A DNA stretch of 64,000 nucleotides from Ruditapes philippinarum (lineage: Eukaryota), in assembly GCF_026571515.1 (NCBI RefSeq), contig NW_026852821.1:186001-250000 (forward strand). Direction: 5' to 3'. The position numbers were made by a program, and so were the translations under genes. Each line of letters opens with the position of its first letter. Within the stretch, counting starts at the first letter, position 1. A model generated the notes under the pieces. It had not been told where the DNA came from. It saw only the letters and a program-made list of their open reading frames with translations, and did not search any database. Shown piece after piece: positions 1,795 to 62,319 of this stretch.

Positions 1795-2110
1795 AGCTGC
1801 TAATAAAGTCTGAAACCCCTTCAATGTACTTTTTATCAAGTTTTCCCATTGTTTTCAAATGAAACTAAAAATTTAACTGAATTTAACTGAAATGCACCCT
1901 CTTAAATGCACCCTCCCGCTTGAATGAAAACGTTACAGTGAAGGAACCATGATGAAAGACGTATGAACACATCTACCGATGCTTCTGAATTCTACAATCC
2001 TGAAACATTTTCGTGTCTGAAAGCTGTGTTGTGCTTGAGCCGGTGCTAGGGGGGCATGGACTATAGATTACATTTACCACTGCCGGCCATCAATTTTAAC
2101 CTGCAAAATT
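1795..2110 (+). mobile_element. Degenerate copy of the long-form structured non-coding element
   Basis: GAAGGAACCATGAT...ATGAACACATCT..CGATG and GCTTGAGCCGGTGCTAGGGGG match 10367-10475. Confidence 0.7.
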
Positions 2111-3019
2111 TTCGATGTCACCATATAACTCGTATTTGTGATGCTTCCATTTTCTCCATTTGTAGGACGGCTTTAGTAATTAGCACTTAATGCCTTGAGA
2201 ATTAAAGAGGAAATTAATTGTCGTTTAATTTGCCTTTCATGGGAAAGTGTAACAAGATTGCTTTACAGAGGTAATAAAACCTATCTCGTTTGAGCTTTAG
2301 ACAAGCAAACGATGTACTCTTAATGTTATATTTTAGGACGTTAAATCAATCGCATTGTTTGTTTAAGTCATCTGAAAGAACAGTTGGTAACAGATCATGC
2401 AATGCTTTACCATTATTTTTTGTATTTTTGTTTGTTTGAAAACTTTTTTTATCATATATTGTCAAAAAATGAATACACTTTTTTAACCATACTTGATTTT
2501 GATCCAATTGTATCATTCATAACATATTCATTTTCTATCAAATACGTTACTATATAATATGTAGGATACTTCTTTATCCTCATTATCATCATTGGAATAG
2601 GTTACTGAGTTACATATAAAAAAATATGTAATAAAACAATAGAAAAGGAACATTCCCGGGATTCCAAACTGGATCAATTTATAACATGACAAAACAAGAA
2701 TATCTGAGGATCTCTTGAATGAGTTGATCATTGATCATCTGAGGTATATAACAATCGTACAATAATGCTAATGCATTTAATTAAGATCACATTAAAAACA
2801 TGGTATCATATGGCGATGATTGTAAGAGTATGAACGAACGGGATTATCTCTTATTATTGTGATGCCGTCAAGATTTCTTTTTCAGAGAAGGACTACAAAG
2901 AGGGAATATTATGATATAAAACTAGTAAAGTTTTGCTCTTAATATAAACCATGTGAATATAAATAAATAATTATTATATGTTATTTACGTTCCTACAAAT
3001 GTCTTGTTTTCTTAACCAG

Positions 3020-3291: not shown

Positions 3292-3422
3292 GACTAGGGG
3301 ATGTGGACGGTAACATACACTTTCATTTTCCGTTCATGAACGGGATTAATCAAATCGAACCTGCAACATTTTAAATTGTGTCGTTTTTGTAGTTCTCTTG
3401 GAATTCCTTTTGGTCTATTTTG
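3292..3422 (+). mobile_element. 5'-truncated degenerate copy of the structured element (3' domain)
   Basis: CTAGGGGATGTGGACGGTAAC...CCGTTCATGAAC...AATCAAATCGAACCTGCAACATTTT...CTATTTT matches 10468-10596. Confidence 0.75.
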
Positions 3423-3990: not shown

Positions 3991-6089
3991 CAGCATAATA
4001 TTAGAAAAAAATAAACACAAAGTAAAGCCTGGTATTTAAAACCAATTATTAATGTACTATTCATTGCGCTGTAACTTTTTGTGCGATTGCTATTTTTCAT
4101 TATCTATAGATATATTCACACCCTCAAATGTATTTCTTGGTAGATGTTGCATAATCTTTAAGAATAAGTAGTATTTACACCAGATTCCTATGTCTTAATA
4201 TGTAAGACGAAATGCAAGTATGCCCTTATGACAAAAATGTAAAATTCAGAGAAATAATCAAACAACACTTTTATTGCCCTATGAAGAGATAACGCAATGG
4301 CAATTTCCTCTTTTTGCCATTCATTAGGAGAATTCAACCGGTTGAGAAATTTGACTTCTATTTCTTCTCACATGCAACATTCGGACTTTATAAAGATCTT
4401 CATTTTTGCTGAAGAAGTTAAATCTATAATATTAATGCGGGTTAAGATTGATTTTCATTATGACATCAATGTGAAAGCTCTTGCATGGTATTCTTGCATA
4501 TTTCCTTCTAGTTTTAAAAGCAAAATTGCTAAATTCATTTATAAGATCAATGCTTCATTTTGTAACAGATGAGCACGTAAAAATTACTATAACACCCAAG
4601 AGTTTTTTTTCAAAGTCTACACATATCGCTTTAAATATCTATCGACTGTCTTGTCACGTGATTAATTGTCACGTGATTGTAACATTTATCTTGTCATGAT
4701 ATCCATGTCGATATCGGATCATTAGCGCTTATCATCTTTACAAAATTGCAGAAATAATGGATATAATTTGATGGCAGATAAGATACTAATTGTGCACTTC
4801 ATGATACTTTATCAACGACATTGCGAATAATACGAATATCAGCATTTTAGATTAGTTTGCAATTTTAAATGATCAACTATTACAATGGACATTTTATTGT
4901 TTTTTCCCGTTTATATCATATATTATACAAATGGCATGTAGATAAAGTCAAATCCTGTGTGCAATCGCGGATTTATTTTTTTTTTGTTAATATATGTATG
5001 TTTTAATATGCGGGGCTATATCTGTAAGTTAACATTCTACAAAATTTTCTTTGGTTGTTTTTAAGGTGAACCGACATCTGTAGCTTTACTTGTAGATGAA
5101 GACCTTGTGTGCCCCTATGTGAATTATCGTATGCATGAACGGGCATATTCGTAAGAAACACCAGTTTCCGTTGTCAACCGTTCAATCACCAACCATTCGT
5201 CTGATTCCGTTGCGAATTAAAAAATTAGTTACTTCTAAACACAACATCGGGAAAAAAGCTCCAGCCCAAAAAAATCGGTATCAAGAGGCCAGCACGCCAT
5301 GGTCGTTTTTTAATAAGTGTTACGGGAAATATATGTAAAACAGAAACTTAAAACAAAAACTTTAAAACTTTTGTTTTTAGTGTGATTACATGTACATAGT
5401 TCCATATTTACTCAGATCGGGCATTTGTGTTGTAAGATATACGAAAAAAAAAAAAACCCCGATTAGTTACGCAACATATATAATTAAAACATACCTCATA
5501 TGGTTTTGTGGCATAGCTTGTATTCCGTATTGCATGCACAGTTGATGGAAGTAACGAAATGGCTATTTTATTTCTGAATAATACTGAAATCTTATTAGTT
5601 TGTCTTCATTTTGATTTGGGAATAGCTGAAAAGTTTGTCTAAATCTAATTTTATTAGGCCTTGAGACAATCGTCAGAGTTACATATTAGAATAACTAAAC
5701 TTTGTAATGCACTGGCTTACCTGTAAATTATTTGCTCTATCAAATCATTTTCTTTGTAGTCAAACAGGTTTGATAATAATTACAAATAAAATTTGTATCA
5801 TTTGAGTTAAAATAAAAAGCAATGACGCTTTTAAAATATCATTTATCATAAGACTCACTGATTCAAGTTGGAACCTTTAGAAGATGTGTCTGTTTTGGGA
5901 AATATTATATTGTCTTTATTTAATAAGAATTAAAACAATTGAGCTGATCTAATGTAAAGTTATCGATGACTAAACATTAGGTCTTTAATGAATAGGTAGC
6001 GTTTCTAATTACCTAAATCTTGGTTGCACTGGTTGCATACCGTTTGATGTTTTAAAGTGAATATGAGAAGTCAATGGTAAAAAAAATGC

Positions 6090-7225: not shown

Positions 7226-8047
7226 TTAATGGTACAAGAAAAAGTACGTCACAAGTGCGCCGGTGGTTTGTTGAATTGTTTTAGATACGTTAAAAAGCAA
7301 TGAGAACAAATGGGCTGGACATTATATTAAAGTTGAACGATTATAAACTGGCTTTTTGGAAGAACAACGATTGCGTATAATGTTTTAATCTTAAAATTTA
7401 CCATGTAAAGATAATTTATATTAACTTAATTTTTCCTTTCCGAATTGGTTTTCCATCATTATAAAAAGGTCCTTAGTGCTGTTTATATGTTATTTACTAT
7501 TCAGCTTTATTTGCTTCAGTATCGTCTATAGAACATAATTTACTTGCTCTCATGTACTGATGTTCAACCACAATGCCACAACAAGACAATATAATCGGAC
7601 ACGTTGCATTATCGAAGTGAAGCTTTGATGGTATTTTCCGGATAAATCATTATAGTATATCCATGGAAAACAGTTAATGTCTATGTAAACCCCAATACCT
7701 GAATTTAATTTGTACTTTTTAATGTAAATATATGAATGGCAGCTATAAACTGAAGTGACGAGGTATCGTAATATTAAGTTTTTTCCATTTTGCCATTTTC
7801 ATGGATTTTAAAAAGTTTAACAATGCTCGAATTTAATTAGTTATACACATGAAAGACGCGCAATAATGTTATGTGCGTTATGATTGTATCGTTTTCATGC
7901 ATATAATTATAGTTTTGTAAAAGTAAATTTCTATGTTTGTTGTTATTTTCAATAGAGGAATGAACATGTACATTTAATGCACTGACCTTAGAAATATGTG
8001 TGTTCATGTAAATATTAATGTCCTATCGGTCTCGATGGTCATATGGG

Positions 8048-8343
8048 TAAAATTCTGGAAACAAAGTGATCCCTCGGAAGCATTAATCACAACAAAATTT
8101 CAAGAGAATTGCAGACTCGGTTTGATTGAGTCTGTACATGAGGGATAATGAATAAGTGCAACACCCCTCACGCCCCCTAGCACCGGCTTGAGCGGTACTC
8201 AATTTTCAACACTTAATAGTGCTGGCATCAATGATCCCGAAGGACCAGAAAATATAACAACACTGAAGTTAAGTACGGGGCAACTTTTTACAGCTGCCGA
8301 ACGGCACTTGACACCTGCTGTTGTGAAGTATAAAATTCTTGAA
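8048..8343 (-). mobile_element. Short-form (~283 nt) structured non-coding element with 13-nt terminal redundancy
   Basis: TAAAATTCTGGAA (8048-8060) and TAAAATTCTTGAA (8331-8343) flank the unit. It carries all conserved blocks of the long form and is absent from the paralogous SINE at ~16390. Confidence 0.8.
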
Positions 8344-8515
8344 TTTTAGGTTACCGGCTTCAAATCACTTGCCCATCACCTCTGTAAGCTCAAGTCTTGT
8401 CGATGACTGTAATGAAATTATCCATCTAGCTCATGGAAGGTCGATGGTTATACTTAGCTACTCGCTCGTGTCTGTTATTAAGCCCAAAGGGACACCTTAG
8501 GCCTCCTTCCACAAT

Positions 8516-8724
8516 ATAGTTTGTTTGTTTGTTTCATTTTACGCCTTTTTCCAACAGTATTTCAGTCATATAGGCGGGTAGTTTACTAACCATCGTTTCT
8601 GGAGAGTTACACCAGTACTAGACTACCTTACTTCGCGCTAAACTACCAAAGCATCTCCCGGGGATCGAACCATGCCAGAGAGGTAACTGGATTAGAAGTC
8701 ATCGACTCTAACCACGGAGGCGGT
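8516..8724 (-). mobile_element. tRNA-derived SINE, second family, with 13-bp TSD
   Basis: TSD CTCCTTCCACAAT at 8503-8515 and 8725-8737. Minus strand has B-box GGTTCGATCCC and an (AAAC)n tail. Confidence 0.85.
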
Positions 8725-8778
8725 CTCCTTCCACAATTAAAGTTGGAAAGTCGCCGTATGGCCGTTAGAGTGTTTGTG

Positions 8779-9316
8779 CGAGTCTGCAATTCTTATGTAA
8801 TTTTGTTGTGATTAATGCTTCCGAGGGATCACTTTGTTTCCAGATTTTTTTCTCTTTTCTTGTTGGTTCCAGTATTCCTGACTTGAATACTGTTGAAATA
8901 CCCTTAAGATATGTGACCTGCTTTTTAAATTTGTCTTTTGACGTCTTATCTGTGATATGCAGGCTTCATAACCTCTGACCCCCTTTCAAATTTCCATTGT
9001 ATTTGTTTAAGCCCATTGTTTTCTCGTTTAGGGCACACGCATTTTTTATGACTTGGGGACCATATGCCGTTTTCATGGAATGTCATATTGAATGTTAAAT
9101 GATAACCGCCATATGAATACATCTGCGGATGTTTAAAAATTGTACCAGTTCATGTAAAATTTTGAATTCTACTTAAACCGGTGGTAGGAGGCGTGGACGG
9201 TAGTTCGCACTTGACGTACACACGGTCCATGAACAGGCTTGATCAAACCGAGCTTGCAACATTTTCAATTTTGCAGTATTTGGCTTTCTTTGGGGATTCT
9301 TGTTTTATCTATTTGT
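8779..9316 (+). mobile_element. Composite insert: short-form 3' tail (8779-8847) fused to a 5'-truncated long-form copy (~8855-9312)
   Basis: 8779-8847 is the near-exact reverse complement of ~8050-8119. 8855-9312 aligns to ~10118-10596. Confidence 0.8.
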
Positions 9317-9717
9317 TTCACACCGACAGCACAAACAGACACACTATGAAAGCCTATTAGAATAATCACAGATTGACAATTATCTTAAATATGTCGTGGG
9401 ATACCTAAATTCTATCTGAAACACATGTTCAGGAAAGTTATTTTACAAACGACACAAATCGCATCAGAATTTTTTTTAATAAGTTTATGCTCATTCCCGG
9501 ATAATGTATTTCAATATAGAATTAGCCTGTATAAAATTTTGAATTTTTTTTTGAAAAAATTGGTTCTCGCGTAAAACGCTCAAATATAAGTTTATTCATA
9601 GTTTGCTCTTTTGCAGTAGTTAGGATTGTTAAGACCGAATTTCTCTACTCTTCCGAATGTGTTGGTGTTATATACATGATGTGACGTGAATTTGCTTTAC
9701 AAATTAAATTGATGAAC

Positions 9718-10597
9718 TGGCACTAACGTGTCACATTGAAGGTTCCATGATAACCGCCATATGAACACATCTGCGGATGTTTCAAAATTCTAAATTTTAC
9801 CAGTTCATGTTAAATGTTGAATTCTGCTTAAGCCGGTGCTAGGGGGCGTGGACGGTAACTTGCACTTGACAGTACCGTCCATGAACAGGCTCAATCAAAC
9901 CGAGCCTGCAACATTTTCAATTTTGCCGTGTTGGGCTTTCTTTAGGGATTCTGTATTTATCTATTTTATGATCACATCCGTGTTATTTGTGCCGTGTGGC
10001 GGCTGTAAAAAGTCTCCCCGTACATTTAATCAATGATGTTATATTTTTGATCCTTGAAGATCGTTCAGCACGACATTATTGTTGTGCTTGTGGTATTTTT
10101 AGTTTCAACTTTTTGGCATTTTCTAGTTGGGTGGTTCCAATATTCCTTCTTGAATAATGTTGAATCACCCTTAGGATATGTTGCCTGCTTTTTAAATTTG
10201 TCTTTTGACGTCTTATCTGTGATACGCAGGCTTCATAACCTCAGATCCCCTTTCAAAATTCAATTTTATTTAGTTCCGCCCATTGTTTTCTCGTTTAGGG
10301 CACACGCATTTTTTTACTTGGGGACCATATGCCGCTTTTCATGGAATGGCACTAACGTGTCACATTGAAGGTTCCATGATAACCGCCATATGAACACATC
10401 TGCGGATGTTTCAAAATTCTAAATTTTACCAGTTCATGTTAAATGTTGAATTCTGCTTAAGCCGGTGCTAGGGGGCGTGGACGGTAACTTGCACTTGACA
10501 GTACCGTCCATGAACAGGCTCAATCAAACCGAGCCTGCAACATTTTCAATTTTGCCGTGTTGGGCTTTCTTTAGGGATTCTGTATTTATCTATTTTT
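9718..10597 (+). mobile_element. Long-form structured element, ~1.4 tandem units (period 629 bp, 250-bp direct repeat)
   Basis: 9718-9967 appears identical to 10347-10596. The whole block is missing at the paralogous site ~16895-16912. Confidence 0.9.
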
Positions 10598-13429
10598 TGA
10601 CTAATACGAGTATAGGATTTTAAAACCAAGAGTTTGAAAGTTGTTTTTTTTTTCAAAAGAATTCTCATTTTGAATTATTAAACTTACTACGACAAAGTTC
10701 TAGAAATATGCCGAATTTCATTCGGTATAGAAATATTGTCATGAAAAAAATAATCAAACGATACACACTTCACAGATGCACCAGTGATTATTACGTATTA
10801 CAAACATAAGCCATTGTCTAAGTGCAAACATGATGACGAACATAACTTTACAGATCCAATTTATGTATTGCTATATTTATAACACATGTGTATGCTAATA
10901 ACGCTTAGATTCTAAATATTTTTGTTTAATTATCAAAAAGCTAATATTTATAGGAATATTAGTATAATTTCAATCAATGTATCATTTAGCTCTATAAATA
11001 AAATTCTGTCGGTTCATTTCATTACTTAACATGTATTTACAGGAATTATCACAGTCGTTTCAAAGAAAATCAGATAAAAGGTAGGCTGTCAATGCTCCAT
11101 CCAAGTATGTACTAAAGATTATTATCAGGGACTTCAGAAACTGCAGGTTTTTAAGTACTTACTTCGATTCAGAAACTGCAGGTTTTTAAGTACTTTCCAG
11201 CACGAGATAGTTTCGCATTTTTTATCAAATCAATAAAATTGTACTTAAAATCATTTCTGTCTAGGAATAAACGGTATTCTGTACTTGATCTTTGTCAATG
11301 TGAACTGCATTTGTATTGGCAATGACTTTTTGACTAACCAACTAGTTTCAATAAAATAAAATTGTTAAGTTTTTTAGAATGTCATTATATCATTATTCAA
11401 CATATTTTGAACAAATGGACAAAATTAATATATTATCTTCATTGAACTTCATAGCTCTTCTATTTATATTTAAAATTTGTTACGTGTCGCAATTTTTTAT
11501 TATGAAAACTACGCGTTACACATGCTATTTTGTAAAGACATTATATACTGCATTTGCGCAGACCAAAATGTGTATTGCAATTGAGATTTTGCATAAATTT
11601 GACAGTTATATAAACTATTGTGAAGATCTGACAATATTTCGAATTTTAAGCGGAAAATCCACTTCCTTTAGAAACAGCAGGTTCCAGTTAGTCTATTGTT
11701 TCCTATATATGATTTGTGGAAAATAATACAAGTCAAAATATATAGTTTCATAAGACCAAAGTCATCAATACTCGTCCGATTTTAAAATACTTTTAATAAA
11801 TTTTAAGGAAACCGACAATGTGGTTGGCTACTGAGAAAATTCCAGTCTAAGTCGCTTTCGATTATAACAAAAGGAATCCAGCTCTTGTCAGTCAGTCTGA
11901 ATAAAAAGAAATATATTCACTTTCTCCAAAACAAAACAAGTTGAAAAGCGAGGGATAATTGGATAGTTAAATCCACAATCATACGACTCCGTGTTGTATA
12001 GAAACATTCATTTGATGCTAGCGCCTATCAACAGTTAATATGTATTTGAAATACCATCAAGAGTTTTACAGAAATGTAAAGACATTCCCACTGAAAGAGA
12101 AATAAATAAATCGGAAGATAACCTTTACAACCAAGTGTCGTTTTATATCGCATAACGAAGGTAAGTAACATCGGTAAAATATTTTACTCCCGGCATTCCA
12201 GAAGACGGCTTTTTATCAACAAAAAAGCTGCTAAAAAGTTATTACATTGAGCGATGGTTTACAACAAGCTACAAGTGAAGCAATGCTGCCGTTATTGACA
12301 GATTAATTGCATCAAAAACTGCAATCATATGTCGCTGATAAGTTAAACACAAAATGAATACTAGTTTTTGCAATACCGGCTTTATTGATAAAGCGTTGAT
12401 ATGTAATAATTTGAAAAATGTTCATGCGATAGATTATATCAGTTGCTGATTTAAACAATGGTTGTTAAAAGGAATCTTAAAGTATGTGTTCCGACAAGTA
12501 TCAATATACTTCGGTTAACTGTTTCTTCAAAAGCGGATCCATAGCCAATTTACGCAATGCTTATTCTAAGAAAACTGAATATGCATAGGTCAAAGATTGA
12601 GTGCGTGTAACCGATTAATTTTATTTTTTGAATAGCTACGCTCATATTATATTTTTGGACATATGTTATATAATGTACAATCACATTAGAAGTCGATGTG
12701 TTAATTCATGCATAAAAAATCAACGATGTCCTTGGAGCAGAACTATAAAATACGCATGAAATGCACAAATTCACAGAAATTTTAATTAAATGTTAGTTTA
12801 TTGCCCCGGGAAGAGGTAACGTAATTGGAATTTCCTCATTTGCCATTCATGAGGAAAATTAAACTGTTAACAAATCGCGACTTCTATTAGATATTCACAT
12901 GCAGCATTTGGGCTATTGATGATCTTTACATGTTGTAGAAAGCAGTTGTTAATGTTTTCAAATATTTCACCGTATTTCATATATTAAGATATCTTATTTT
13001 GTTGGTCGTCCATATGAAAAAAAAGAAATTTAAAGAAAAATTACATTGTCACCGAACTGTGAACTGCGAAACAACATAAAGTGTTATATATTCCTGACAC
13101 TTATGCCATAATTATGACGATCAATGTGATATCATTTTATTATTTATTTATTTTTGAGAATTTAATAAAAACTATAATCTTAATCTTTTTGACAATGAGA
13201 AAAAGTATTATAAAAAACAATGATTTTTTTCTCTATTATATGGCGAATATCCTTTAGAAATATAGAAATAGGAGGAATTCAATGTAATCACTACGAGAGG
13301 GATTATGAAAATCTGAACAATTAAAATGTTATAATAATATATCAATTAAACATTTACTTTGATTTTGCAAATGCTCTATATTTGCTATAATTGTTTTTTT
13401 TTTTTTCGTTTTTATTTATTTATTGTTCG

Positions 13430-14836: not shown

Positions 14837-15115
14837 TTGTTTGTTTGTTTGTTTTGGGGTTTACGTCACATCGACACAGTATAGGTCATATCGCGACGTT
14901 CCAGCTTTACTGGTGGAGGAAGACCTCAGGTGCCCTTCCGTGCATTATTTCAGGCACGAACGGGCACCTGAGTAGAACCACCGACGTTCCGTAAGCTAGC
15001 TGGATAGCTTCCTCACATGTAAGAATCCAAAGTCCCAGTCGGGATTCGAACCCACAGCGGTGAGGGGCAAGTGGTTTGAAGTCAACGACCTTAACCACTC
15101 GGCCACGGACGCCCC
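14837..15115 (-). mobile_element. Young full-length tRNA-derived SINE (possibly V-domain/RUDI-like) with 12-bp TSD
   Basis: Minus strand has A-box TGGCCGAGTGG, B-box GGTTCGAATCC and an (AAAC)n tail. TSD ATCTTTGCCGAT at 14825-14836 and 15116-15127. Empty paralogous site near 21385. Confidence 0.93.
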
Positions 15116-16374
15116 ATCTTTGCCGATAATCATTCATTAGTGCTGTAAGTTGCAAATATTCAACAATTACCCAGAATAGGCATTTGTGCTGTAAGATACG
15201 AAAACAATGTTTATTTACGCTAAGAATTACGCAACTTATTTAATAAAAACAGATGGTTATGTTACATAGATTTGCTTTCCGCATTACATGCACTGATGAT
15301 GAAAGTATTATACTAACTAAAAGGCAATTTTATTTCCATTTCTGAATAACGATGAAATTTAATTAGTTTTTCTTCATTTGCATTTGGAATTAAAGCTGAT
15401 ATGGTCAGCTGAATCCGAGATTTATTAGGTCTTAACACAATATTCAGTATTTGATATAAGATTAACTAAACTTGGTTATGCACGGGCTTACCGGAAATAG
15501 AAAATGCCCAGTAAACTCGTTTTCATTGTTATCATCAAGTCTGATAATCATTGCGAATAAATTGTGTATCAATTTTTGGTAAAACAAAAGGAAATCCTAC
15601 TATGAGATTCACTGATGCGAATCTGTTGCTTTAGAAAATTTAAAAGTTTTGGAAATAATTCAATTTTCATTTGGCAACAATTTAGCTGATCGAACTTAAC
15701 GTTAAACATAAATGAACCATAGGTTTTGAATTTTATTTAAAAAGAACCCGGGGGCTTTTATTATTACCTACATCTTGGTTGCAGACTGGTTGACTTTTTT
15801 AAGAGTTTCAGAGAAATCAAAGAAAAAAGGGGGTATCAGAGAAATCAAATAAAAAGAAAAAATAGTATCACAGAAATCAAATAACAAAAGAAATAAAGAA
15901 ATTTAAAATAGAAATATGCAGAGATGCAAATTACGTACGTAACACTATAAAACATTTTATTCCTGGCTTTCCGGTGGACAACGGTTAATCAAACTGACGA
16001 TAAAAATATCAAGGAATTCATTGACTTGAGCGATAATCTAGTTTTCAGTATGTACAACAAGTTACAGTACAATATTTGACAGTTTTATTGCATCGATAAC
16101 AGAAATCATATGGGGTTGGTATTGCAAATCAAAACAACCGAGGAATATTAATGTTCTGCAATTCCTGTTTAATGTTAGAACTGCATAAGTATTGTTACAC
16201 CCATTTTTTTGTAAACAGTCGATCCAGAGAAAATAAGATACCGTTTTCAGTCATACAATTATATTGTAAAAGTGTTTTTCTTTTTGTTTCTTGTAATTAT
16301 CAACGGAGGAATGGACATGTACACAAATTGATTGCACTGACCTTGGGAATATGTGCTTTTCTGTAAATAGTAAT

Positions 16375-16600
16375 ATCCGAGTGGCCGAGTGGGTAAGGTT
16401 ACCGACTTGAAATCGCTTGCTCACATCACTAAGTGCGAGTTGAGTCTTGTCGACGACCTTGGATATTTTCACGTAATTGAAGCTATCAGCTCGTCTCTGC
16501 AATAAAGCTCAAAGGGAAACTTTAGGTCTTCCTCCACTTTTTAAGTTAAGTAAGAAAGTCGCCTTATTTGCGGGACTTCAAATCCGACAAAACATATAAA
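16375..16600 (+). mobile_element. Degenerate tRNA-derived SINE
   Basis: GTGGCCGAGTGGGTAAGGTTACCGACTTGAAATCGCTTGC...GGTCTTCCTCCAC...AAAGTCGCC. Confidence 0.8.
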
Positions 16601-18299
16601 CAAACTCTAGAAGCTTATTAGAATAATCACGGATTATAGATTATTATAAATGTTTCATTGGATACCTTAAGTCTTTCTGAAACACATATTTACAAAAAAA
16701 ATAATTTACAAATGCTTTGTTTTAAGCTTAGTTCAGGATAATGTATTTCAACAAAGACATACATTTATATATTATCAATTTTATCAGAAAATTTGCTATT
16801 TTTGCAGTCGTTAGGATTGTTTTGTTAGAATTTCGCTTCTCTGAGTGTTGGTAATATGCTCATTCTGTGACATAAATTTGTTTTATAGATAAAATTAAAT
16901 AACTTTAATTGGATTTTAAAATCTTTAGTCTTACACTTTATACATTTTCCAAGCAAATTCTTACCCTTTTTTACTTATTAAACTTTACTACGGCAACAAT
17001 TTAGAACAATTCCGAATTTCATTCAACATAAAAGTAATTGCATTACAAGGGACCTTTATCAGCGTTTCAAAAGAAGGCAATAGACACAATTTTAGCAGAT
17101 GCATAAATGTTAGTCAAGTATTAAAAACATAAGCCATTGTCTTTAAGTTAGTGAAATCATGTTGACGAACATAGCTTTAGAGATTCAATTTATTCATTGC
17201 GATACATATAACGAATTTGTATGCCAATAACGCACGCTTAGTTTCTTTATATTTTTGTATAGTTATAATTATCAAACAACTAAGTATTATAGGGATATTA
17301 AAGCTTTTTCAACTTCTGTACCATTCAGCACTATAAATTATATTTTGTCAGTTCATTTCATTACTTACAAGGCTTTATAGGAATGCGTCAGAGATGCTAT
17401 CGCAGTCGTTTCAAAGGAAATCAGATAAAAGATAGGCTGTCAAAGCTCCATCGAAGTATGTACTTAAGATTACTATCAGATACTTCAGAAACTGCAGGTT
17501 TTGAAGTACATTCGATCACGAGTAAATTAAGCAATTTTCACTCGATCATTAGAATTGTACTTTAATTTATTGCTGACTAGAAATACAATGTATCCCATGC
17601 ATGATCTTTGTCACTGTAAACTGTAATTGTATTGGTCATGACTTTGTGACGTACCAAACATCCTCAATAAAATGAAGATGTTATGAATTTCGTTATTCAA
17701 CATATTTTGAATAAATGTTAAAACAATACATAATATTATCTACACTGAACTTTATAACTCTACTGTTAGAATTTTTGAGTTGCAATTTTGTGTTATGAAA
17801 ACTACGCATTTCACATGCTATTTTGTAAAGACCTTATTTAGTGCGTTTGCGAAGACCAAAATGTTTATTGCAATCGAGATTTTGCATAAATTTGACAGTT
17901 ATATGAATAATTGTTCAGATCTGACAATATTTCAAATTTTTAGCATAAAACCCGCTTCCTTTAAAAACAGCAGGTTCCAATTAAACTATTGTTTTCTATA
18001 TATAACGAAGGCAAAATATATAGTTACGCATAACCGAAGTCATCAATACTCGAGTGACTGTGGAATTGCTTTTAATAACTTTGAAGGAGATTCTGACAAT
18101 TGTTATGTGCACGATGTGGTGGGCTACCGATAAAACGCACAGAGTCAGTCGATATCAATTTTAACCAAAGGAGACTAGCTCTTTACAATTAAGTTGCTAA
18201 AATCAGAACTAACAGCTATGATTTCTGCATTTAATTCATTTCTAAATAACAATACAATTAAAATTTGATAGTAAGATTTTCTTCATTTAAACTGTGGAA

Positions 18300-18522
18300 A
18301 AAGGATAATCCATCGGAATCAGTAATCACAACACAATTACATGAAAATTGCATACTCGGTTTGATTCGATCTGTATATGAAAAAGGGCAACATCATTCAC
18401 GCCTCAAACACCGGTTTGAGTGGTACACAGATTTCAGCACTAGAAAGTGCTGCTATTAATGATCCTGAAATACCAGGAACTATTAAAATACTTTAGTACG
18501 GGACAATTTTTTTTACAGCTAC
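18300..18522 (-). mobile_element. Degenerate short-form structured element
   Basis: TGCATACTCGGTTTGATT...CACGCC..ACACCGGTTTGAG...AATGATCCTGAA...AGTACGGGAC..TTTTTACAGCT is collinear with 8060-8297. Confidence 0.8.
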
Positions 18523-20104
18523 ATTAATTGATGCACTCGGAATTTCACTTGTTCTTGACATATAATCTGAATAAAAAGTAACATGTGCAACTTTTCTAAA
18601 AACAATTTTTATTGTGAGAAATATTGATGTTAGCTCCTTTCAACAGCTAAGTTACATATGAAATATCAAAATGTAACTAAATTCAAAACGTAAATAAAAT
18701 CTGATCTTAAACTTTATACTACAATTCAAGAAATAACCATGCAGCTTTTTATATAACATATTTACATAAATAGATACAATATTTTACACCTGCATTCCAG
18801 AAGACGGCTTTTTATCAAAGATAAAAACGGCATTGCATTGGACATTTTCAGGTGAAGGAATGCTCCCGTTTATTAATTGACAGATTAATTGCATTGAAAA
18901 CTTCAATCATATTTCATGGTTAAAAAAATAAACTGTATTAGTGTTTTTGCAATACCGGCGTAATTGATAAAACGTTATATAATAATTTGATTTTTTATCA
19001 TAATTGATGGTTACGCGATATGTTATATCAGTTACTGCTTGAAACAACGCATGGTATAAGGAATCTTTACGTATGTTCTCCGCCAAGTATCAATATGCTT
19101 TGGTCAACTGTTTCATCAAAGACGAATATATATAGCGCATTTACACAATGCATACTCTGAAGAGATAATTAAAATAATTGAGTGCCTATGATCGACTTGT
19201 TTCATATATAATAGTAACAGTCAAACATAATAATTATATTTTTGAACAGATGTTGTATAAGTGTAAAAAATGAACAATACATGTATTTACAATTGCAGTT
19301 GATGTCTTAATACGTAAAAAAAATACAACGATGTCCTTGGAGCAGAACTATAAAACACGCATGAAATGCACACATTCACAGAAATTATAATTAAATGTCA
19401 GTTTATTGCCCCAGGAAGAGGTAACGTGATTGCATTTTCCTCATTTTCCATTGATGAGGGAAATTAAACTGTTAACAAATAGCGACTTCTATTAGATATT
19501 CACATGCAACATTGGGACTATTGCTGATCTTTACATGCTGTGGAAAAAAGTAAATGCCTTCAAATATTGCTACCGTTTTTCATATGAGATTGATTTCTTT
19601 GTCATCCATGTATCGATTGACAAAAGAACATTGTCATCGCAACTGAACCGCGAAACAACAAGTGTTATATTTTCCAGACATACTTGTACACAACGATTGT
19701 GATATAAATGATTCAGGGTTATGAGTATTTTCGTTTTTAATTGAACGCTTATCTGATTTTCTAACAGAAAACATATTTAAATGATACACATGATTCTCTA
19801 GATTTATGTTCCCTCAATCACTGTTAATATCATATCGCGATCAATGTGATTTGACTTTTTTGAGAAATTGGGTAACAATATTAAATATGTTATATAAATT
19901 ATACCTTAATCTTTTTAATAAATGAGTTAATTGTGATAAAAATCAAATATTTTTCTCTTTTTTTATGAAGAATATCCTTTTGAAATGAGAGGAATTCAAT
20001 GTAATCACTATCATGATAAGAAAGAAAGGTAAGAGGCTATCGAATCTACCCACGAACAACTTAATTTGATCATTGCAAATAGCTATATATTTTCTATTTT
20101 GGCG

Positions 20105-28905: not shown

Positions 28906-31590
28906 CTAAAAAATAAAGCTTTAATTTATTACGTGCTTTTAAGGGTTTAAAATCAATTTTACTTGATTTCATCCCGCGTTTTTTGCGCTGTCATTCATGA
29001 TATCTTCAATTCATGACGTACTATTGATCTTGTTGAAAAATAATTCTGAAAAATGTAGCGAATTTTGGTTCAGGTTAAAACGATAAGTGCAGGTATTCAT
29101 GAAGCTTTAGTTATAAAGCAAATTGAACTCATGAATAAGTGTATTTCTGATCGTATTTCCCTTTAATTAAGATATATTCTTTTCATCAGCATTCAGATAT
29201 ATTCATGCTACTGTAAAAATCATATCTTACAATTTCACTGTAAAATTATCAAAATATAATTTCAGTATCCACTGACAAGCATGTTATAAAATTATTCTTA
29301 TCAATATCATTTAAGAAATTTTCAGTCACTTACTTTTCACCTAAACTTATACATCTATTCATATTAGCAATGTTTTGATTAAGATATATAATTATTTAAG
29401 AAGCTTTATTTTCAATCAAATTTTCATAATTAGACAAAACAAGTAAATCTCTCTTTTTGTTATTTTTTATATGCTTTCTTCATAACATAAATATAGCTTA
29501 AAGTTCTGGTTTCGTAACGTTTACTTTATTCCTTGTTTACTTTTCCGAACAAACGATTATTAAGAAATGGAATAATCTATTCTTCAGCTTTACTGTAATT
29601 AATTGATCCTAACTTATGGCAACTGTCTTAATAATAAAAGGTGTTTTCTCCTTTGAGTTTTAACCAATTAAAAACAAATCATTGTTGAAAAGTAATTTTC
29701 TTCATGAACGTTAAGACTTTGTGATTTATTTATAAATGTATATTAAAGCTAAGCTATTCTGATTTCCTTTGCCATATTTTGAGTAAAGTATTATGCAAAT
29801 CATTCTGATAGAATCTGATCTTTCTTATTGTGAATTCAGTATGATAAACAAGATTGTTGTTTTGTTGTTTAGTTTTGCTGCTTGTTTATTGTTTTTGTTT
29901 GCGTTTTTATGTTTGTTTGTATTTCCTTTTTTATTTGGTTATATTTGCTGCTGTACTAACAAACACTTGCTGCTGTACTTACAAATGTTTAACACCTAAG
30001 ATAACATTGTAATTTAATAATAAATACTTAAAGTTTTAAAAACATTTCAGATTTACAAATCATTGATAAAATGTGAATATAGTCTGGATTCAATTTAAAT
30101 GCTGATATTTTAGTAACTGTAAAAGGTATGTCACCTTGTTAAAGTATTGTACTGTTTATAAAAAAAACATAGACTGACTTTTACACGCAGAAGCCCTTCT
30201 TTCAGAATGTTATCAATCAAAAATCTGTAATTTGTAAAACGTATTCATTAAAGGTATGTGAAATATATTTAAACCAAATCTTTTCTATGTATGAAAATCT
30301 TAATCGTTTTAACGTGGGCTAACCTAAACTGATGTCATGAATGATTAAGTCTATTTTTTCTTAAATATGTATATGGTAAAAGATGAAATATTTGCATTGT
30401 TATTGAAGTCGTAGCTTATAATGAGTTCAAATGGTGTGTCGTTCATAACTTTCCCTTTACAGTGCAAATGGCTTTCTATTGGTTACCTACAAACAAAAAC
30501 GTTGTCACTCTGATATCTTTATGGTTTGTTGTCTAATCTTGAAGAAAAAAACGATTTTTTGAAAAAGAAGTCTTCAACGTAAAGTTAAAGAAGGGTTGTC
30601 TAATGTTATAACGCTAATATCATATGCTTGTGTATTTTACTTTGAATTTATTGGTCCGCTTAATAGTATTAATTTCATAAGAACAGAGTATTTGATACTC
30701 TTTGATCATGTAACATATGTATTTTAACAACTTGTGCCCGATTTATTGGTATATAAAATCAGTCATTTCTTTACATTTAAAAGACTGGAGTAGGTTTTAA
30801 TGTATTAAACACTTATAATGATTACAATGATAATGTTTCAAAAGTAACCGATATATGACATAATAGTGGCGTTTTATGTTCTTTGAAATTACAAAAGAAA
30901 ATTATCAGCATAAATACCTGCATATAAATAACTAAAGTATGTACTGTAACATATGAAAACTTTTTTTTTTCTTACAGGAATTACCCTGTTACAAACAGCA
31001 TTATGTCAAACAATTTGTCGTTAACGTAAACATGAATGCATTTGTATTGATCGATGAATTGTTATAATTTCCCGATTTTAAATGCAATCAATGCATTTTA
31101 TTAATTATAAAAAATAAGTAATGGCGATTGAATACAGCTTATGCCGGTGCTTTTGCTACTGATGTATGTTTCATTTTCTGCCATGCACAAAGCTTATCAA
31201 ATTACATTTATTGGTTCACATGTTTTTTTTATTGTTATCGTTGGGTCATTCATTTTCACTCCCTTAGTTTTGTCTTAATTTTGTTCTTTACTTGTCTCAT
31301 GGTTTGCTTTAAAAGCGCCATTGTCTTGAAAATGATTGATTTATGACCACATGCACATTGGTATTTCTCTTGAACACTCCACATGAATGCAACAGCTAAT
31401 ACGTTTTTAAATGTGAAATATATCACAAGTTGTACCTATAGAAGGTGTCTAGATATAAAATTCGCTCAAAAATCAACAATTTGATAAGTCGTCATACTAC
31501 CTTTAAATGTTTATCCTTATAACAGATGACTATTAAAGGAACATTACATGTTCCGTGTCAAGCTCATTCGGACTCGTCTTAAACGAAAGC

Positions 31591-37306: not shown

Positions 37307-37619
37307 TTACACATCTTTTACCCTAAAGAGTTAACCGTTACAATAATAATGACAATAATAGTCAATTAAAATACCATCAAACGAAACATGCTTTTTAAAA
37401 CGACTGTCCGTCTTCTAGTCAGTTTTCAGAACATTTTATTCAAAATGTTTAGAACTGTTCATGATAAAATCATACGCAGGAAACAAACCAAATACAAAGG
37501 CAATAAATATTAATTGAGATATTTCACACACACTAGAGTTGAACTGCCGATGCAATGAATAATACAAAAGATCGCTGTTAAGTTCTTGAAAGATAGCAAA
37601 AAAAAAGACTTGGCAGTAG

Positions 37620-37728
37620 TTTGCACTTGACAGTACCGTCCATGAACAGGCTCAATCAAACCGAGCCTGCAACATTTTCAATTTTGACGTGTTGGGCTTT
37701 CTTTAGGGATTCTTTTTTTCTCTATTTT
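37620..37728 (+). mobile_element. Young 5'-truncated copy of the long-form structured element
   Basis: TTGCACTTGACAGTACCGTCCATGAACAGGCTCAATCAAACCGAGCCTGCAAC...AGGGATTCT is nearly identical to 10489-10581. Confidence 0.9.
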
Positions 37729-49100: not shown

Positions 49101-52100
49101 CAAATGTATTTTAAACATTAAATTCATGTTCATCATATAAAGCTGAAATTGTAATGGAACCAAATCTCAGAACACAGTCATGATAAACAGATTTATATTT
49201 AATTACAAACAAACCAAACATGGTAAAATTACCAGATATAAATTTAAATCGCAGTAACGTATATTTAAATCAAGTCGAAAAAAACACAACATATTTTGAG
49301 AGGTACATGCATACCAGTTTTGTAGGTAGGGCTTAACAGAAGGATAGTTGTCGCCGATGTTAGATCTTTCAGTTAAAATGTATTGCTTGGCAGGTTATAG
49401 ACTGCTATGTCTTCCGGCTGTTGCACTTTTATATTTTCCCCCATGATCAGGCTCCAATCAACCCGAATCTGCAATTTCTACGTTATGTTGTTGTTTCATT
49501 GCTTCTTCGGATCAACTGTATATTATTATTATTACTATTGTTATTTTTTTCCTTGTTTTTTTCTTAATAAAATGCAGCATTTAATATCGTCATTAACCAA
49601 TATCTGGTATCTGCGATAAGCACTCGATGTTCGCTCTGACGTTGACAGGCGATTAGTTATCCATAAGCGGTAATAAGTAATTAATTATGTCAGCGTTCTG
49701 TCGGCAATTAAGATCTATCATGATAAACGATTAACTACTTATTGATGCTTCTGTTGCTGCTAATGTCCTATCATTGAATACGATAGCATCTTAATCAATA
49801 CTCCTGGCACGAAGCGACACTTAAAGAGAAAAATTGAGGTAAAAAAAAGAATGCCTCTTTATCATAATCATTTAGTTTCCGATGATGATCATATTACATA
49901 CTGGTTGATATAATAATCTAATTATATGATTTACTGCTTTACAAATCAATTACGCGATATAAAAGAATTTAGCACAAAGCAATGCGTTCCTTTTACAACG
50001 ATATATTTCATTTATACAATGGCGTAGATTTGGTTATGAAATTACTGTAGTAAATGGCTGATGATTGGTTGCCCATATGCTTCATTCCGGTGGCGAGGGT
50101 ATATATACCTAACACATACAAATTGAATGAGTTCATTGTCATATATTTATATTTTATTGTATGCTGAGACCTCTGTGTAACTGTCGATACCAGTCGTAAA
50201 AAGAAATTTTGTTCTTTGTGCCATTGGCTTGCAGGAAATAAGATTATACAGTCAGATTACAAATATGGAGATCAACAATTTTCGACTTTCTATTACTTAC
50301 AAAAAAGCAAAGCGCTAATGTCTCAACTTTCTATAAAGAGGATCATTAATAGAAGGAATTTCGTAACAACTTGAATTGCGTTTGTAAAATAGTACAATTA
50401 CAAATGGCATTTCAGGTGTATGTAAACAAATATACATTTACATATCATCAGAATTAGCAGATCTATAACAATACATACTTGCCGCTTATTTTTTTAATGT
50501 TTATATTGCATTTTCGGAAAACAATATATAATTATATAACCATCCAGATTTCGGTGTAAGATGTGCATTATTTGTATTTAATAATAAAATGTATAAGAAT
50601 AAATATCGTGTGTACAACATTCTTGAAAAATAACGAATATCTCAGAATATTATCAAGAGAAAATATTGCTGATAAAACAATGCCAAGGATTCGTTACAAA
50701 AAAAGCAAATGTAGCCATAATATAAATACGTAATTGGATATTACTTTAAATTACAAATAAATATCTTTTGACAATAGTTGGTTACTAACATGGTTACATG
50801 CTTACAATAATTATCCTGAAGCGTCGTTATAATTACTGCTTTAAGATTTATATAAGCCGGCTTTGGCACTCCCAAGGTAATTTTCAACCATATTATGTTT
50901 AAGGTTGAATTGCACTAGTATTAAAATTTTATATTGTAAAGAATACAAAAATGATGTACCATGGAATCAAACCAAAGATAATTCTGCATAGACGCGAGTA
51001 TGTGTATAAATGATATAAGATTTATTAAATTAAATGTAAATGTTCCCATAATTGGACAAACACTTAGGAGTTAACGTGTACCTGTAAATAAAATTCTGAA
51101 AACTGCAAAAAAGAAAACGTATATAATGTATATGGTTTCAAATACATGTTATATTTAAGTTTTGATCTCGATGTATTAAATTAAAAATATGTTCGACCCA
51201 CAATTTCAATAAAAAAAATCAATGACATTTTAATGTTAAAAGTAGCCAACAAATATGATTGCCTGAATCTCAAAATCAATATTCAAGAGAATAACAATAA
51301 TTTTATTGTTCAATACATAAAATTTTTATGACAATAAAATGCCGGTTAAAAAAGTAATAATTTGGAATTCTATAAAATTTGTTTCAAAACATTGAAAAAA
51401 TAAGCTACACAATTTATTTTGCTTTTTTCTAAATTGCGCGTTGACATATATTTTCAAGCATAGCAAGAGGAATGCATAATGCGTGTAGATAAATATTAAT
51501 TCGTGTTTACCTTATTAAAATATTAAACTGCTACACCTTTCATAGATATACTTAGTCAAAATGATAAAATCCGCATGAACGCCTGGTAACTCATAGACGA
51601 AACGTTTTACTAACATTTTGTTTCTTACACAATTTTTCTCACTATGCACATATTTGATTTACTCCATGAAACGGTTTTCTTTATGTCTGTGTATCATATA
51701 AAAACTGAGGTGAACATGCTTAAATTCCAATTTTCTTGCAATTCTTCTACAATTAAAAGGTTTTTGTAATCTGCGTAAATTACTGTTATATTAACCCATT
51801 TGAAAGTAAGATGTGTGTTTTCATGAAATATTTCCGAATAACCATTTCCAACATTATCCTTAGAAAATAAACCCATTTAAAATGATAGTGGTATCATATA
51901 TCCGCAGAACAACCAGGTACAATGCGTTTCGTCTGTGTTTAAAAAAGTTAGGGGAATTATTCCCCTAAGTCAGCACTGTACTGTCACTATCTGTGCATGT
52001 AAAATTGTTGCTGAAAAAGCGCATTGAGGTCGACCCCCGGAAAAAGGACATCTGGAATTTCCTTTTTTATTCTGGAACGCATTTGAGGTGAACATGCTTT

Positions 52101-55827: not shown

Positions 55828-58800
55828 GAGGCATATTATTTGCCTTGTTTATTATTCTAAAATGAAAATGGTGGCTTTAACGGTTTACTAATTGAGGCGA
55901 GGAAGACATTAGGTGCCCCTCTGAACGTTATTTTCATATAAAGAACAACTTAATACAATAACTTTCACATTTTCTTGTAAATTGTCGCCATTGTTTATTA
56001 GAGGCAAGTATGTTAAAGCATGTGACAAATCTGTCTGGCCAGGGTTATAGATTACTTTCTATCAGAAAGTGACATAACATAAATGATACACATGGAAAGA
56101 CGTAAAAAGCATATATTCTTAATAGAAATGATGACAGCTATCAAACAAGATTTAATAGACTTTTAAGGTATCTAATATATTTCAATTTTCTTCTTTGTAA
56201 ATAACCTGTTTCAAATACTCAGGTAATAAATAGATTATGAATGGATGCTGTCACAAATTCAAAATGATAACGTCTTTTATAGTCTTTAATGGTTGAAATA
56301 AATATGTAAATAATCTGCTTTTAATTAAGTAATATTTGTAAGAATCCTGTATTTATCAGATTATTGCATGGTAAAGAATTGATGAACATAAACTGGAAGA
56401 AAAGGGTGTCACTTTGATATGGGGAATGCCGGTATCTTTGCAGGCCATATGGAGCCACCTGTTTCGCCAAGGGATAATTCCGAGTTTTTATGTATGGATA
56501 ATTAGAACTAAATGTAAAAATATACTAAACGAGGAATCGCACGAAAGCGTTCACACAAACGGATTAAAAATGCTTGATTGAATATTTTTTTCCAAGCAAT
56601 AAAATTTGAAAAAGTGCGCTATGATCCATCCCTTTTGACATCATGTTATGGTATTCTTTCAAATGTTAAATTAGTAATGTTTTACTACTTAAATTTGTTT
56701 TGGAGAATAAACCAGAGGAATTAGAGAAAACATTGTATATGTAATCAGTGATTAACTTCAACCAGTGCGAGAGTATAGCTATCTATCCTCAAAACAGTAT
56801 GTCAGCATTGGATATAATTACATGTAAATATAGTTCTAGGAAAATAACGTATTTCTCAGAAAAGATAAAAACTTCAGTTACACAATAGACACAGATAAAC
56901 ACATGGAGACATTCGTGATAAACGTAAAAAAACTGACAAATATTTTGTATGGCCATTCTCTTGATATCATATATTCAAATAGTAAAAAAGAACATGGTTT
57001 TATACGAAAGGATAATGCTGTATACAATTATCGATAGTTGACTTTGGAGCAAACAATTTATGATTTTAGGGAAACGAATTGTTGCACTTTCTCATTATCT
57101 CTTGTGAACAGAACAAATGAAACGGAGAAATTACGTATACTGTTGTGTCCAGTGATTTCGAGGGATCAAGCTTTTTTCAGATTTCTTTTCAAAAAATGTC
57201 CAGAACGGGAATGCTCTGTCAATCCAAACTGTATTTTTATTTTTCTTTCAATTTCGTTTAATTTCATATTTTTTAAAAAATATTTTCCTTTTTCCTTGAA
57301 ATATATCACATACATGTAGTTAACCTTCATGTGTAGTTATCTGAAAAAAAATATCAAGGTTTAAAATAAAAACACCTGGCATGATCCCTCAGTCGTTATC
57401 ACTTTACAATTTCTAAAAAATAATTCCTCTCCGTTTAGCTGATCTGAATCCATCAAATTTAATAATAACTTTAATATCAAGTATTGGTTAGAGAAGAAAA
57501 AAAACTATCTTAAAGTGGTCGATGAATTTTAAAAGCTTGAAAATTGTTAACATTGTGAACAGTTTTAAATATGTTTCATTACTCAAGCTTATTATAAGAA
57601 ATATTATTAGTTATTATCAGAAACGCTTTTAAAGATATACCATGCTCATATTTAAGTAAGATATTTTTTTCCGCAGAAAATAATTGAAATTTATGAACTT
57701 ATTACGGATTATGTCTATTTTGAATAAAAAAAATGCACAAACTATGTATAGAAAGCTGCATTCCCTATAAAAGGTCAAGTAAAGTTGGTCCCTTCTTTCC
57801 AAAAAAAATTTTTTTTAATGACACTATATATTTCGTAGTATGGCCTCCTGTAATGTGTAGAATAAAACACAACACTATTAATTTCTGTGAAATTGTTTAT
57901 TTTACATTTACAAAGAGACGGTGTAGCAATCCTCAATATTTTTAAATACCAAATTTGAGCAAAATGTATCTGAAAACATAACGTCAGAAATATAAAATGT
58001 ACATTTCATACAATTACAATACCAGTTGTTTATTTTGGCAAGACAAAGAACGAACAACACTGTTACGTGTACTCATAAAACAATATAGGCAAGGCTTCAG
58101 ACAGACGAAACATGAATTATTATACATCACTTGAATATGAGCAACATGGGAAATTTATTCAATTTTCGTAGCTGAGATGTTTATGGAATAAAACAAGACA
58201 TCAAAATTAATAATACTTCAAAATAAAGAACTTTTTTTGCATATATGATGTCACGTAAGACAAACGGTCACGGGATTTGCATATGTAGAAAGGCGAAATT
58301 ACTAACAGAACTACTGATTTGAATAAGTGTAGTACATATAGTATGTATGACTTCAGAGTACTCAACTTGTCTAATCGGAAATTTATATTCATAACGTATC
58401 CAAACACATTTATTATATGTAAACAATATCCGAGCTATTTATTAATTAAGAAGTGTTTGCCATTATATTGGCTATTGTATGTGTACAAATAGACAAAATT
58501 CTATATAAAGATCACTGGCTGTAGATCATGGCTGGAATAAACACTTAACACTGCATATCTGAACATATGACAAACAATAAGTTTAAAAAAAATAGTATTG
58601 TGAAAAATGAAGTAAGTAAATATCTTTTCAATTCAAGTAATAATTAACAAGTTATGTGCAATTTAAGTCAAACAGTGCAGTATTTATCACCATGAATTCA
58701 ACTCCATTTCTAACGCAGTAAGGGCTTTTTCACATATTTTTACCTTTAATCGGTAATTTACTTGGATTGAACGTGCCGTTTGCAATGTGTAAATTACCTT

Positions 58801-61800: not shown

Positions 61801-62160
61801 TCTATACACATAAACCCTTTGATTTACTTTTTCAAAAACTTTGAGGGAATGATGATTTGCAAAGATTGTTTACGTCAATCACTCTGACCTGAGATAAGAA
61901 AATGTATGATGATTGAACAAAAGTGTTTTTTATTCTCAAATAATTTTAAGAGAGTTTATCTTGAGCATGTCAAAACAATCAAATACAACATGAAAGGAAC
62001 AACCACCATGTCACTCTGCTGGTACTTTAGCCTCTTTACTCTAGAAATACTTGTTAACAAAATAACATAGTACCTGAACACTTATTACGCTTTCTTTGCA
62101 GAACTACGTTTATTAATAATAGAATTAATAATAGTCATTCATATAAATAACGAAAATTAT

Positions 62161-62260
62161 GTGCTTTAGCTGGTTCTAGCGGTGTAAGAGATGTTGCCAT
62201 GTTACATTTCCCCTCATGGACACACTCAATCAAACCGAGTCTGCAAGTTTCACATAATTA
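62161..62260 (+). mobile_element. Degenerate 3' domain of the short-form structured element
   Basis: GCTTTAGCTGGTTCTAG...CCCCTCATGGACACACTCAATCAAACCGAGTCTGCAA matches the reverse complement of 8109-8192. Confidence 0.75.
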
Positions 62261-62319
62261 AGTTGTATTTTAATTGAAAACAAATTAAATGTTTCTATAA
62301 AATAAAAATAATACTTTGT

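Follow-up and report, generated by a model that had tools for sequence, protein, structure and literature searches.

How a non-coding 283-nt unit that repeats 13 nt of its own end came to split a SINE is the question raised by positions 8,048 to 8,343 of the window, i.e., of the whole 64,000-nt stretch of Ruditapes philippinarum contig NW_026852821.1 analysed here (about 30% GC, without N). An earlier note on this DNA had read the terminal repeat as overlap from a copy slightly longer than one unit and had taken it as support for a circular monomer. The first part of this reading is borne out, the second is not: the insert is very probably a non-autonomous Penelope-like element (PLE), a retrotransposon, of the Naiad type, in which the junction between unit end and unit start was crossed on a linear template, a circle not being needed.

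Structure of the insert and origin of the terminal 13-mer

On both strands of the 64-kb window, the pattern TAAAATTCT.GAA has exactly two matches, 8048-8060 and 8331-8343, which lie 283 nt apart and are identical at 12 of 13 positions, while Tandem Repeats Finder reported nothing within 8048-8343. The insert consists of the 283-nt unit plus a 13-nt repeat of the unit's own end and splits the head of a V-SINE between parts that are contiguous in the paralogue, as had been noted before. Its start at 8048 stands, whereas the end previously placed at 8343 has to be moved, since non-host bases run on to 8348. These five extra bases (8344-8348) are reverse-complementary to the opening five of the repeat, so that an 18-nt near-palindrome (8331-8348, arms of 8 bp) is formed at the 5' junction, all of which belongs to the direct repeat except for the 5 AT bases.

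Taken by itself, the 13-mer is modestly above chance, with seven matches at up to one mismatch against 2.78 expected (estimate set in 30% GC DNA) and 2 of 100 shuffles equally high. It is nevertheless judged real because it is placed at the head-to-tail junction that is independently defined by the long form of the family. That the 13-mer might instead be a TSD or a chance AT-rich repeat draws on the just-mentioned recurrence of AT-rich 13-mers, but we give this reading practically no credence. In the three uninterrupted SINE heads examined, all paralogues serving as proxy for the empty allele, the best matches to the 13-mer reach only 7/13, 7/13 and 8/13; hence, it is neither host sequence nor a TSD, the element end overlapping the host by only 3 nt. 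Moreover, the same sequence recurs as the 3' end of a separate copy (8779-8851), and a second SINE at a distance of 160 nt provides the contrast expected of an internal control, with a perfect 13/13 host-derived TSD (8503-8515 and 8725-8737). The mostly non-host, element-derived nature of the repeat proposed in the earlier note is thus confirmed, and the 283-nt unit can be accepted as the natural minimal unit. The 13-mer is a minimal pseudo-LTR (pLTR), the shortest case of such a structure.

Host repeat and sequence context

A motif from the intact paralogue (14900-15115), as the only one of five motifs, matched BivaV-SINE1_RuDe in the accessible supplement of PMC4824008, and the row printed there is close to the 3' region of the host repeat, the V domain lying outside the alignment. 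Judged by this similarity, the host repeat is a bivalve V-SINE (BivaV-SINE1) rather than a Meta-SINE. The window contains an old segmental duplication (about 7.9-14.8 kb versus 16.2-21.4 kb, 67-77% identity), and the flanks of the insert align as parts of it (7887-8023 with 16239-16378). At 11885-11935, a decayed remnant resembling the copy at 18288-18522 is found at the paralogous position, and the latter insertion may predate the duplication. A single V-SINE copy (8030-9317) has received three insertions, namely the element in its head, the second SINE in its body and a mixed tandem in its tail; the two short-form pieces within it are 94% identical and stand head-to-head across 430 nt of host DNA.

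Elsewhere in the window, a further dispersed sequence, either a duplicate or a repeat, is present at 35784-37041 and 62544-63861 (about 1.3 kb, 67-76% identity), and another repeat is common to 351-656, 4235-4524, 12739-12926 and 19344-19519. A 135-aa open frame with the look of a host exon (32753-33160, plus strand) has no Pfam match; we presume a resemblance to short-chain collagen C4-like proteins of molluscs.

Copies of the family and their ends

By BLAST and nhmmer, 12 pieces of the family were collected from the 64-kb window (Table 1), with 9709-10598 counted once and 8779-9317 as two. They belong to two forms, a short one of 283 nt and a long one of 629 nt, whose similarity extends over about 110 nt at the unit start (82/113 identical) and, at the opposite end, over about 175 nt (121/176). 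If typical, such a density suggests a very abundant family, which automated annotation would leave as unknown, although the window may be enriched (four pieces lie within 2.6 kb).

Table 1. Family pieces, host segments and predicted structures in the window (H1, predicted end-to-end helix)
Feature	Position	Strand	Basis
Diverged long-type piece; alignment fades 28-48 nt before 3' end	1926..2163	+	
5'-truncated long-type copy, same 3' end	3294..3421	+	
Host repeat (V-SINE by similarity), left part of head with decayed A-box; boundary approximate, last 3 nt overlap element end	8030..8050	+	
Full 283-nt short unit, very probably a non-autonomous Naiad-type PLE; fixed 3' end at 8048	8048..8330	-	sequence, copy ends, fold z-scores
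Predicted H1 3' arm, short form, about 20 nt from fixed 3' end	8068..8079	-	fold
Predicted H1 5' arm, short form	8235..8246	-	fold
5' domain with a predicted hairpin; homology to the initial ~70 nt of Naiad_Scon	8256..8322	-	sequence and fold
Upstream copy of the unit's 3' end, 5'-truncated to 13 nt (minimal pLTR)	8331..8343	-	12/13 identity to 8048-8060
Five non-host bases completing near-palindrome; read as cDNA fold-back or tiny inverted copy	8344..8348	.	junction sequence
Remainder of host repeat, interrupted by second SINE at ~8516-8724	8349..8778	+	
Mixed partial tandem: 71-73-nt short-form 3' piece joined at a T-run to 462-nt 5'-truncated long form	8779..9317	+	
Long form: one 629-nt unit (9968-10598) and preceding 253-262-nt 5'-truncated copy (258/262 identical)	9709..10598	+	
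Predicted H1 arms, long form	10049-10060 and 10568-10579	+	fold
Uninterrupted site in paralogous SINE (empty-allele proxy)	16391..16403	+	
Older short-form copy, same 3' end, without ~35 nt of unit start, no overlap, H1 degraded	18288..18522	-	
Weak internal piece, may be chance	31115..31200	+	nhmmer E 0.019
5'-truncated young copy, 95-96% identical to long form, with the same 3' end and a direct repeat of 6 nt anchored at the junction (likely TSD)	37615..37728	+	
Diverged short-type piece; alignment fades 19 nt before 3' end	49414..49525	+	
5'-truncated short-type copy, same 3' end	57079..57186	+	
Diverged short-type piece; alignment fades 37 nt before 3' end	62150..62270	+	

One end of the unit is fixed, as it is shared within 0-3 nt by 8 of the 12 pieces, the other four being too diverged to be placed, with alignments fading 19-48 nt earlier; the opposite ends of all pieces differ. 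If ends were distributed uniformly on a 283-nt circle, 8/12 within a 4-nt window would be expected with a probability of at most 2e-10, which is an upper bound, and the conclusion is unchanged when considering that two of the eight (both parts of 8779-9317) may represent one event. The unit start with the 5' domain is present in only three of the pieces, and none consists of the 5' domain alone. Six of the 12 measure 86-136 nt. Overlap is absent in ten, and only two exceed one unit, the 8048 copy by 13 nt and the long copy, with its natural head-to-tail junction near 9967/9968, by 253-262 nt. Aligning the copies, a check for circular permutation that had been suggested genome-wide and is applied here to the window, consequently did not reveal the permuted junctions that the earlier note had anticipated for a circular monomer. 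An array of at least two full units was not encountered among the 12 pieces, the longest in the window comprising 1.4 units. Likewise, none of the 3' junctions of the 12 pieces carries a 30-40-nt tail, i.e., an extension into the unit start, a feature that is optional in the class. In a TSD scan of seven insertions, only the copy at 37.6 kb showed a 6-nt word, the others 2-4 nt.

The copy at 18288-18522 is the only other near-complete short one. The short-form piece of 8779-9317, in the tail of the same SINE that harbours the insert, is identical to 8049-8119 at 67 of 71 positions; as a chimera of two subfamilies joined at a T-run, this tandem looks like the product of a template jump or of re-insertion at an element end. 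In five pieces (those starting at 3294, 37615, 49414, 57079 and 62150), the 5' truncation point is at a distance of 110-136 nt from the 3' end, within or next to the second 3' hairpin, which would suit stalling of the RT at this place. The additional approximately 345 nt of the long form (10130-10480) include an imperfect inverted repeat (10322-10395) and motifs that we take to be similar to promoter elements (CRE-, YY1- and Sp1-like), possibly constituting a pLTR promoter.

Assignment to the Naiad-type PLEs

Direct terminal similarity was found to Naiad_Scon, a clam Naiad consensus printed in the supplement of PMC8557442. By-eye counting gives 55/70 and 68/88 identities, ungapped and from consensus base 1, between its 5' terminus and 9967-10054 of the long form, and this match begins where the long form has its head-to-tail junction. 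The last 12 nt of Naiad_Scon agree with 9954-9965, the fixed end of the long form, at 11 of 12 positions (by eye), whereas the last 12 nt of the short form do not match. A 17-nt motif of Naiad_Scon hits the window only at 10005-10021 on the plus and 8275-8291 on the minus strand (chance mean 0.12, with 1 of 100 shuffles equally high). This match sets the sense of 8048-8343 as the minus strand, and the fixed end is therefore the 3' end, as 5' truncation requires; the same polarity had been inferred before the match was found. Among the 54 Naiad consensi listed in the supplement, an exact-motif search for the 5' end of the family returned only Naiad_Scon, while six motifs from the 3' body had no Naiad match there and one chance match in a GC-rich non-Naiad sequence. 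In 12 of the 33 supplementary files of PMC10294476, family motifs were not found.

An autonomous partner is not apparent in the window. None of its 120 ORFs of at least 62 aa matched RT or GIY-YIG models, and the four weak Pfam matches obtained with these ORFs are all below curated cut-offs and include neither RT nor endonuclease. The insert itself, composed of about 105 nt of 5' terminus and about 170 nt of 3' region, has no ORF.

As described in the accessible text of PMC8557442, Naiads show 5' truncation and form partial tandems, an inverted 5' copy being frequent and canonical hammerheads missing; one fixed and one truncated end together with a partial tandem is the PLE structure reported there, with the tail being optional. 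PMC3846280 reports that an insertion of a rotifer PLE lacks a TSD and carries an 18-bp palindrome at its pLTR's 5' end, which is a close precedent for the near-palindrome at 8331-8348. At the level of sequence, the assignment is supported by the terminal homology to Naiad_Scon, the polarity, the fixed 3' end, the variable 5' truncation, the partial tandems and the lack of a TSD at the insert, where the matching partner is from another species and the 3' body has no detected similarity to the printed Naiad_Scon consensus. An overlap such as these 13 nt is usual in the class and provides no evidence that a new circular replicon is involved. In the consensi of File S5 of PMC8557442, inspected by eye, a CCCCG motif is located about 45-75 nt from the 5' end, after a GG-rich stretch, in Naiad_Mcor, Mgal, Bpla, Mphi and Scon as well as in the present family, and is perhaps a wider Naiad 5' element.

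Predicted folding and an end-to-end helix

Both forms are predicted to fold better as sense RNA than expected from shuffled sequences, with z values of -5.1 to -5.2 (antisense -1.9 to -2.1) for the short and -5.9 (antisense -3.7) for the long unit; in neither case was a sense shuffle as good. The natural junction region of the long form gives -3.3 in sense and -0.1 in antisense orientation. In the predicted folds of both forms, a 12-bp helix, H1, joins unit nt ~82-97 to a segment whose end is about 20 nt away from the 3' end of the unit. Its 12 pairs are all kept in both forms despite differences at 9 of 24 bases, three pairs being changed on both sides, in a register that was chosen after the folds had been seen and from two window sequences plus a published one. 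When nine substitutions are placed at random, all 12 pairs persist in 31 to 1,464 of 200,000 trials, depending on transition bias. The cognate arms pair at -35.3 and -31.7 kcal/mol, against -23.5 and -19.5 kcal/mol after swapping. In the published Naiad_Scon consensus, 13 consecutive pairs (two of them G-U) can be drawn by eye, one arm occupying positions 85-97 and the other, 4.1 kb away, stopping 20 nt short of the 3' end. In the older short copy at 18288-18522, the helix is broken up (-22.0) and missing from the MFE fold. The two 3' hairpins show weak covariation, with 80.7% of 114 cells paired versus 74.4% after shuffling (1/500) in 11 related sequences; as pairs changed on both sides number 4 versus 3.3 (204/500), it is not counted as shown.

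From these folds, H1 could hold the RNA ends together for re-entry of the RT. More specifically, and only tentatively, Naiads lacking a ribozyme might use a conserved H1 in place of the hammerhead, clamping the 5' domain to sequence upstream of the fixed RT start, so that unit-length RNA would form a base-paired pseudo-circle, or be primed for true circularisation, and the RT would re-enter the 3' end at each pass. If so, pLTRs of any length from 13 nt upwards could arise from one molecule, and the 283-nt unit would be a natural minimal substrate for PLE tandem formation. In the 1.4-mer, however, the single 5' arm is predicted to find its partner across the junction, in the upstream 3' arm (probability 0.77-1.0) rather than in the downstream one; H1 may therefore equally be a local junction structure in read-through RNA.

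Linear versus circular template

The sharing of one junction register by short and long forms would also agree with a covalently closed, retrozyme-like monomer RNA that depends on a PLE and is read from a fixed internal start for 1.05 turns. H1 is likewise predicted for the short unit when circularised (10 of the 12 pairs at probabilities of 0.97-1.0), which folds at a z value of -5.1, but the MFE of the circle (-91.8) is weaker than that of the linear unit (-97.1). Precedents can be found in the accessible parts of the literature, where non-LTR retrozymes of mussels produce circRNAs (PMC7229834), such retrozymes are linked to PLEs (10.64898/2026.07.22.740005), and the RT of Poseidon starts internally (PMC11167929). 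Searches for a ribozyme do not favour a circle. Rfam had no match in the whole 64-kb window at gathering score and, at E<=10, a single irrelevant one (E 1.7) within 7900-10700. In 11 regions searched on both strands with hammerhead and twister consensus patterns, no canonical match was found, the one relaxed hammerhead match beginning in the flank. Three HDV-like loop matches in antisense were dropped, as the neighbouring helices are not formable by eye, and five SECIS-pattern matches in the 11 regions were rejected for being scattered over both strands and not conserved; ARAGORN found nothing. Besides the missing array of two full units among the 12 pieces, the junction coincides with the published termini of a 4.2-kb autonomous element, and the mixed tandem at 8779-9317 is explained without a circle, its joints connecting different subfamilies at a non-unit position, which one circle cannot give. 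This tandem indicates that jumps or re-insertion at an element end occur in the family, so that a circle is not required. Altogether, a closed RNA circle appears improbable, while crossing of the junction on a linear template by a Naiad-type element is strongly preferred.

Another candidate is an element that moves as DNA, by a rolling circle or a recombinase (Helitron/Helentron, Replitron or Crypton type), and has a fixed start but terminates variably. Rolling-circle transposition would also agree with one fixed end, head-to-tail joints, the lack of a TSD at the insert and a small palindrome close to the junction, and Helentron derivatives are reported to be common in bivalves (PMC7492417). 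Such an origin is nonetheless highly unlikely: both termini match a retroelement consensus with the polarity that 5' truncation expects, strand-biased folding and the G-U pairs kept in H1 suit RNA, and a young copy (37615-37728) bears a 6-nt TSD-like repeat. By eye, Helitron-type termini or subterminal inverted repeats were not seen, and only one end is fixed, which speaks against a Crypton.

For the favoured linear route, we infer the steps of insertion from the biochemistry of Poseidon, for which an AT-rich nick, a fixed internal RT start and a need for RNA downstream of the start are described in the available text of PMC11167929. By analogy, the endonuclease/RT of an autonomous Naiad would move the element in trans, binding the junction structure closed by H1, and its GIY-YIG endonuclease would nick the AT-rich A-box of the SINE, the host 3'-OH then priming cDNA synthesis at the fixed site. 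The RT would copy 283 nt, cross the junction between 3' end and 5' start and stop 13 nt into the next copy, after which the cDNA end might fold back, gain 5 nt and be joined to the host, a fold-back that rests on 4-5 AT bases. For a linear crossing of the junction, the template might be read-through RNA of a tandem master, of which the 1.4-mer at 9709-10598 is an example; alternatively, the RT might jump to the RNA 3' end held by H1 beside the 5' end.

Comparison with known systems

With Naiad_Scon, the 4,194-bp Naiad PLE of Sinonovacula constricta (PMC8557442, File S5), the present family has the 5' ~88 nt (68/88, long form), the last 12 nt (11/12) and the orientation in common, as well as an end-to-end helix whose TCC/GGA core is the same, being placed at positions 85-87 and, on the other side, at 20 nt from the 3' end (each of these judged by eye in the printed consensus), partial tandems and the lack of a canonical hammerhead. 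In contrast to Naiad_Scon, it is without ORF or convincing SECIS, measures only 283 or 629 nt and has a 3' body not detectably similar to the published one. Poseidon PAc of Anolis, as far as covered by the available text (PMC11167929), supplies the biochemical model used above, but is autonomous, belongs to another PLE clade and possesses a hammerhead; moreover, its two start sites produce a tail, which is not seen here.

Non-LTR retrozymes (PMC7229834; 10.64898/2026.07.22.740005), in the parts of these sources consulted, are likewise small structured non-coding units of a few hundred nt with head-to-tail joints, linked to PLEs and present in bivalves. They differ by a type I hammerhead per tandem unit and by circRNA, whereas in the window neither a hammerhead nor a two-unit array is found; the family fails the retrozyme test, yet works like a retrozyme in depending on a PLE. 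Helenus/Ajax TRIMs (PMC10886601) were rejected as a comparison, since the two repeats of the insert do not represent a pair of LTRs accompanied by PBS and PPT.

The kind of element is already known from non-autonomous PLEs with pLTRs of the Chlamys sister clade. From what is accessible of PMC8557442 and 10.1101/2022.05.23.493040, these (MRC1, Chlamys-N4_cRei) are also non-coding, with pLTRs, head-to-tail insertions and heavy 5' truncation, in a clade mostly without hammerheads, and de novo Chlamys insertions have a median of 128 bp (10.1101/2022.05.23.493040). Unlike in these elements from green algae, which resemble their partners at the 3' ends and target C-rich microsatellites, the strongest similarity is 5' here and the targets are AT-rich. 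In the mostly open-access literature searched, neither a non-autonomous Naiad nor a helix connecting the two ends of a PLE was found to be described, and the family may be catalogued in Repbase or Dfam. New here appears to be H1, predicted to join the 5' and 3' ends in short and long forms and with an equivalent in Naiad_Scon.

How PLEs form partial tandems and pLTRs is an open question according to the accessible text of PMC8557442, Naiads managing without the hammerhead of other PLEs. For this mechanistic question, the locus adds a conserved end helix and a compact substrate, offering a natural mini-element of 283 nt, its relative of 629 nt and an autonomous element already published, all three with common termini and a predicted, covarying helix between the ends.
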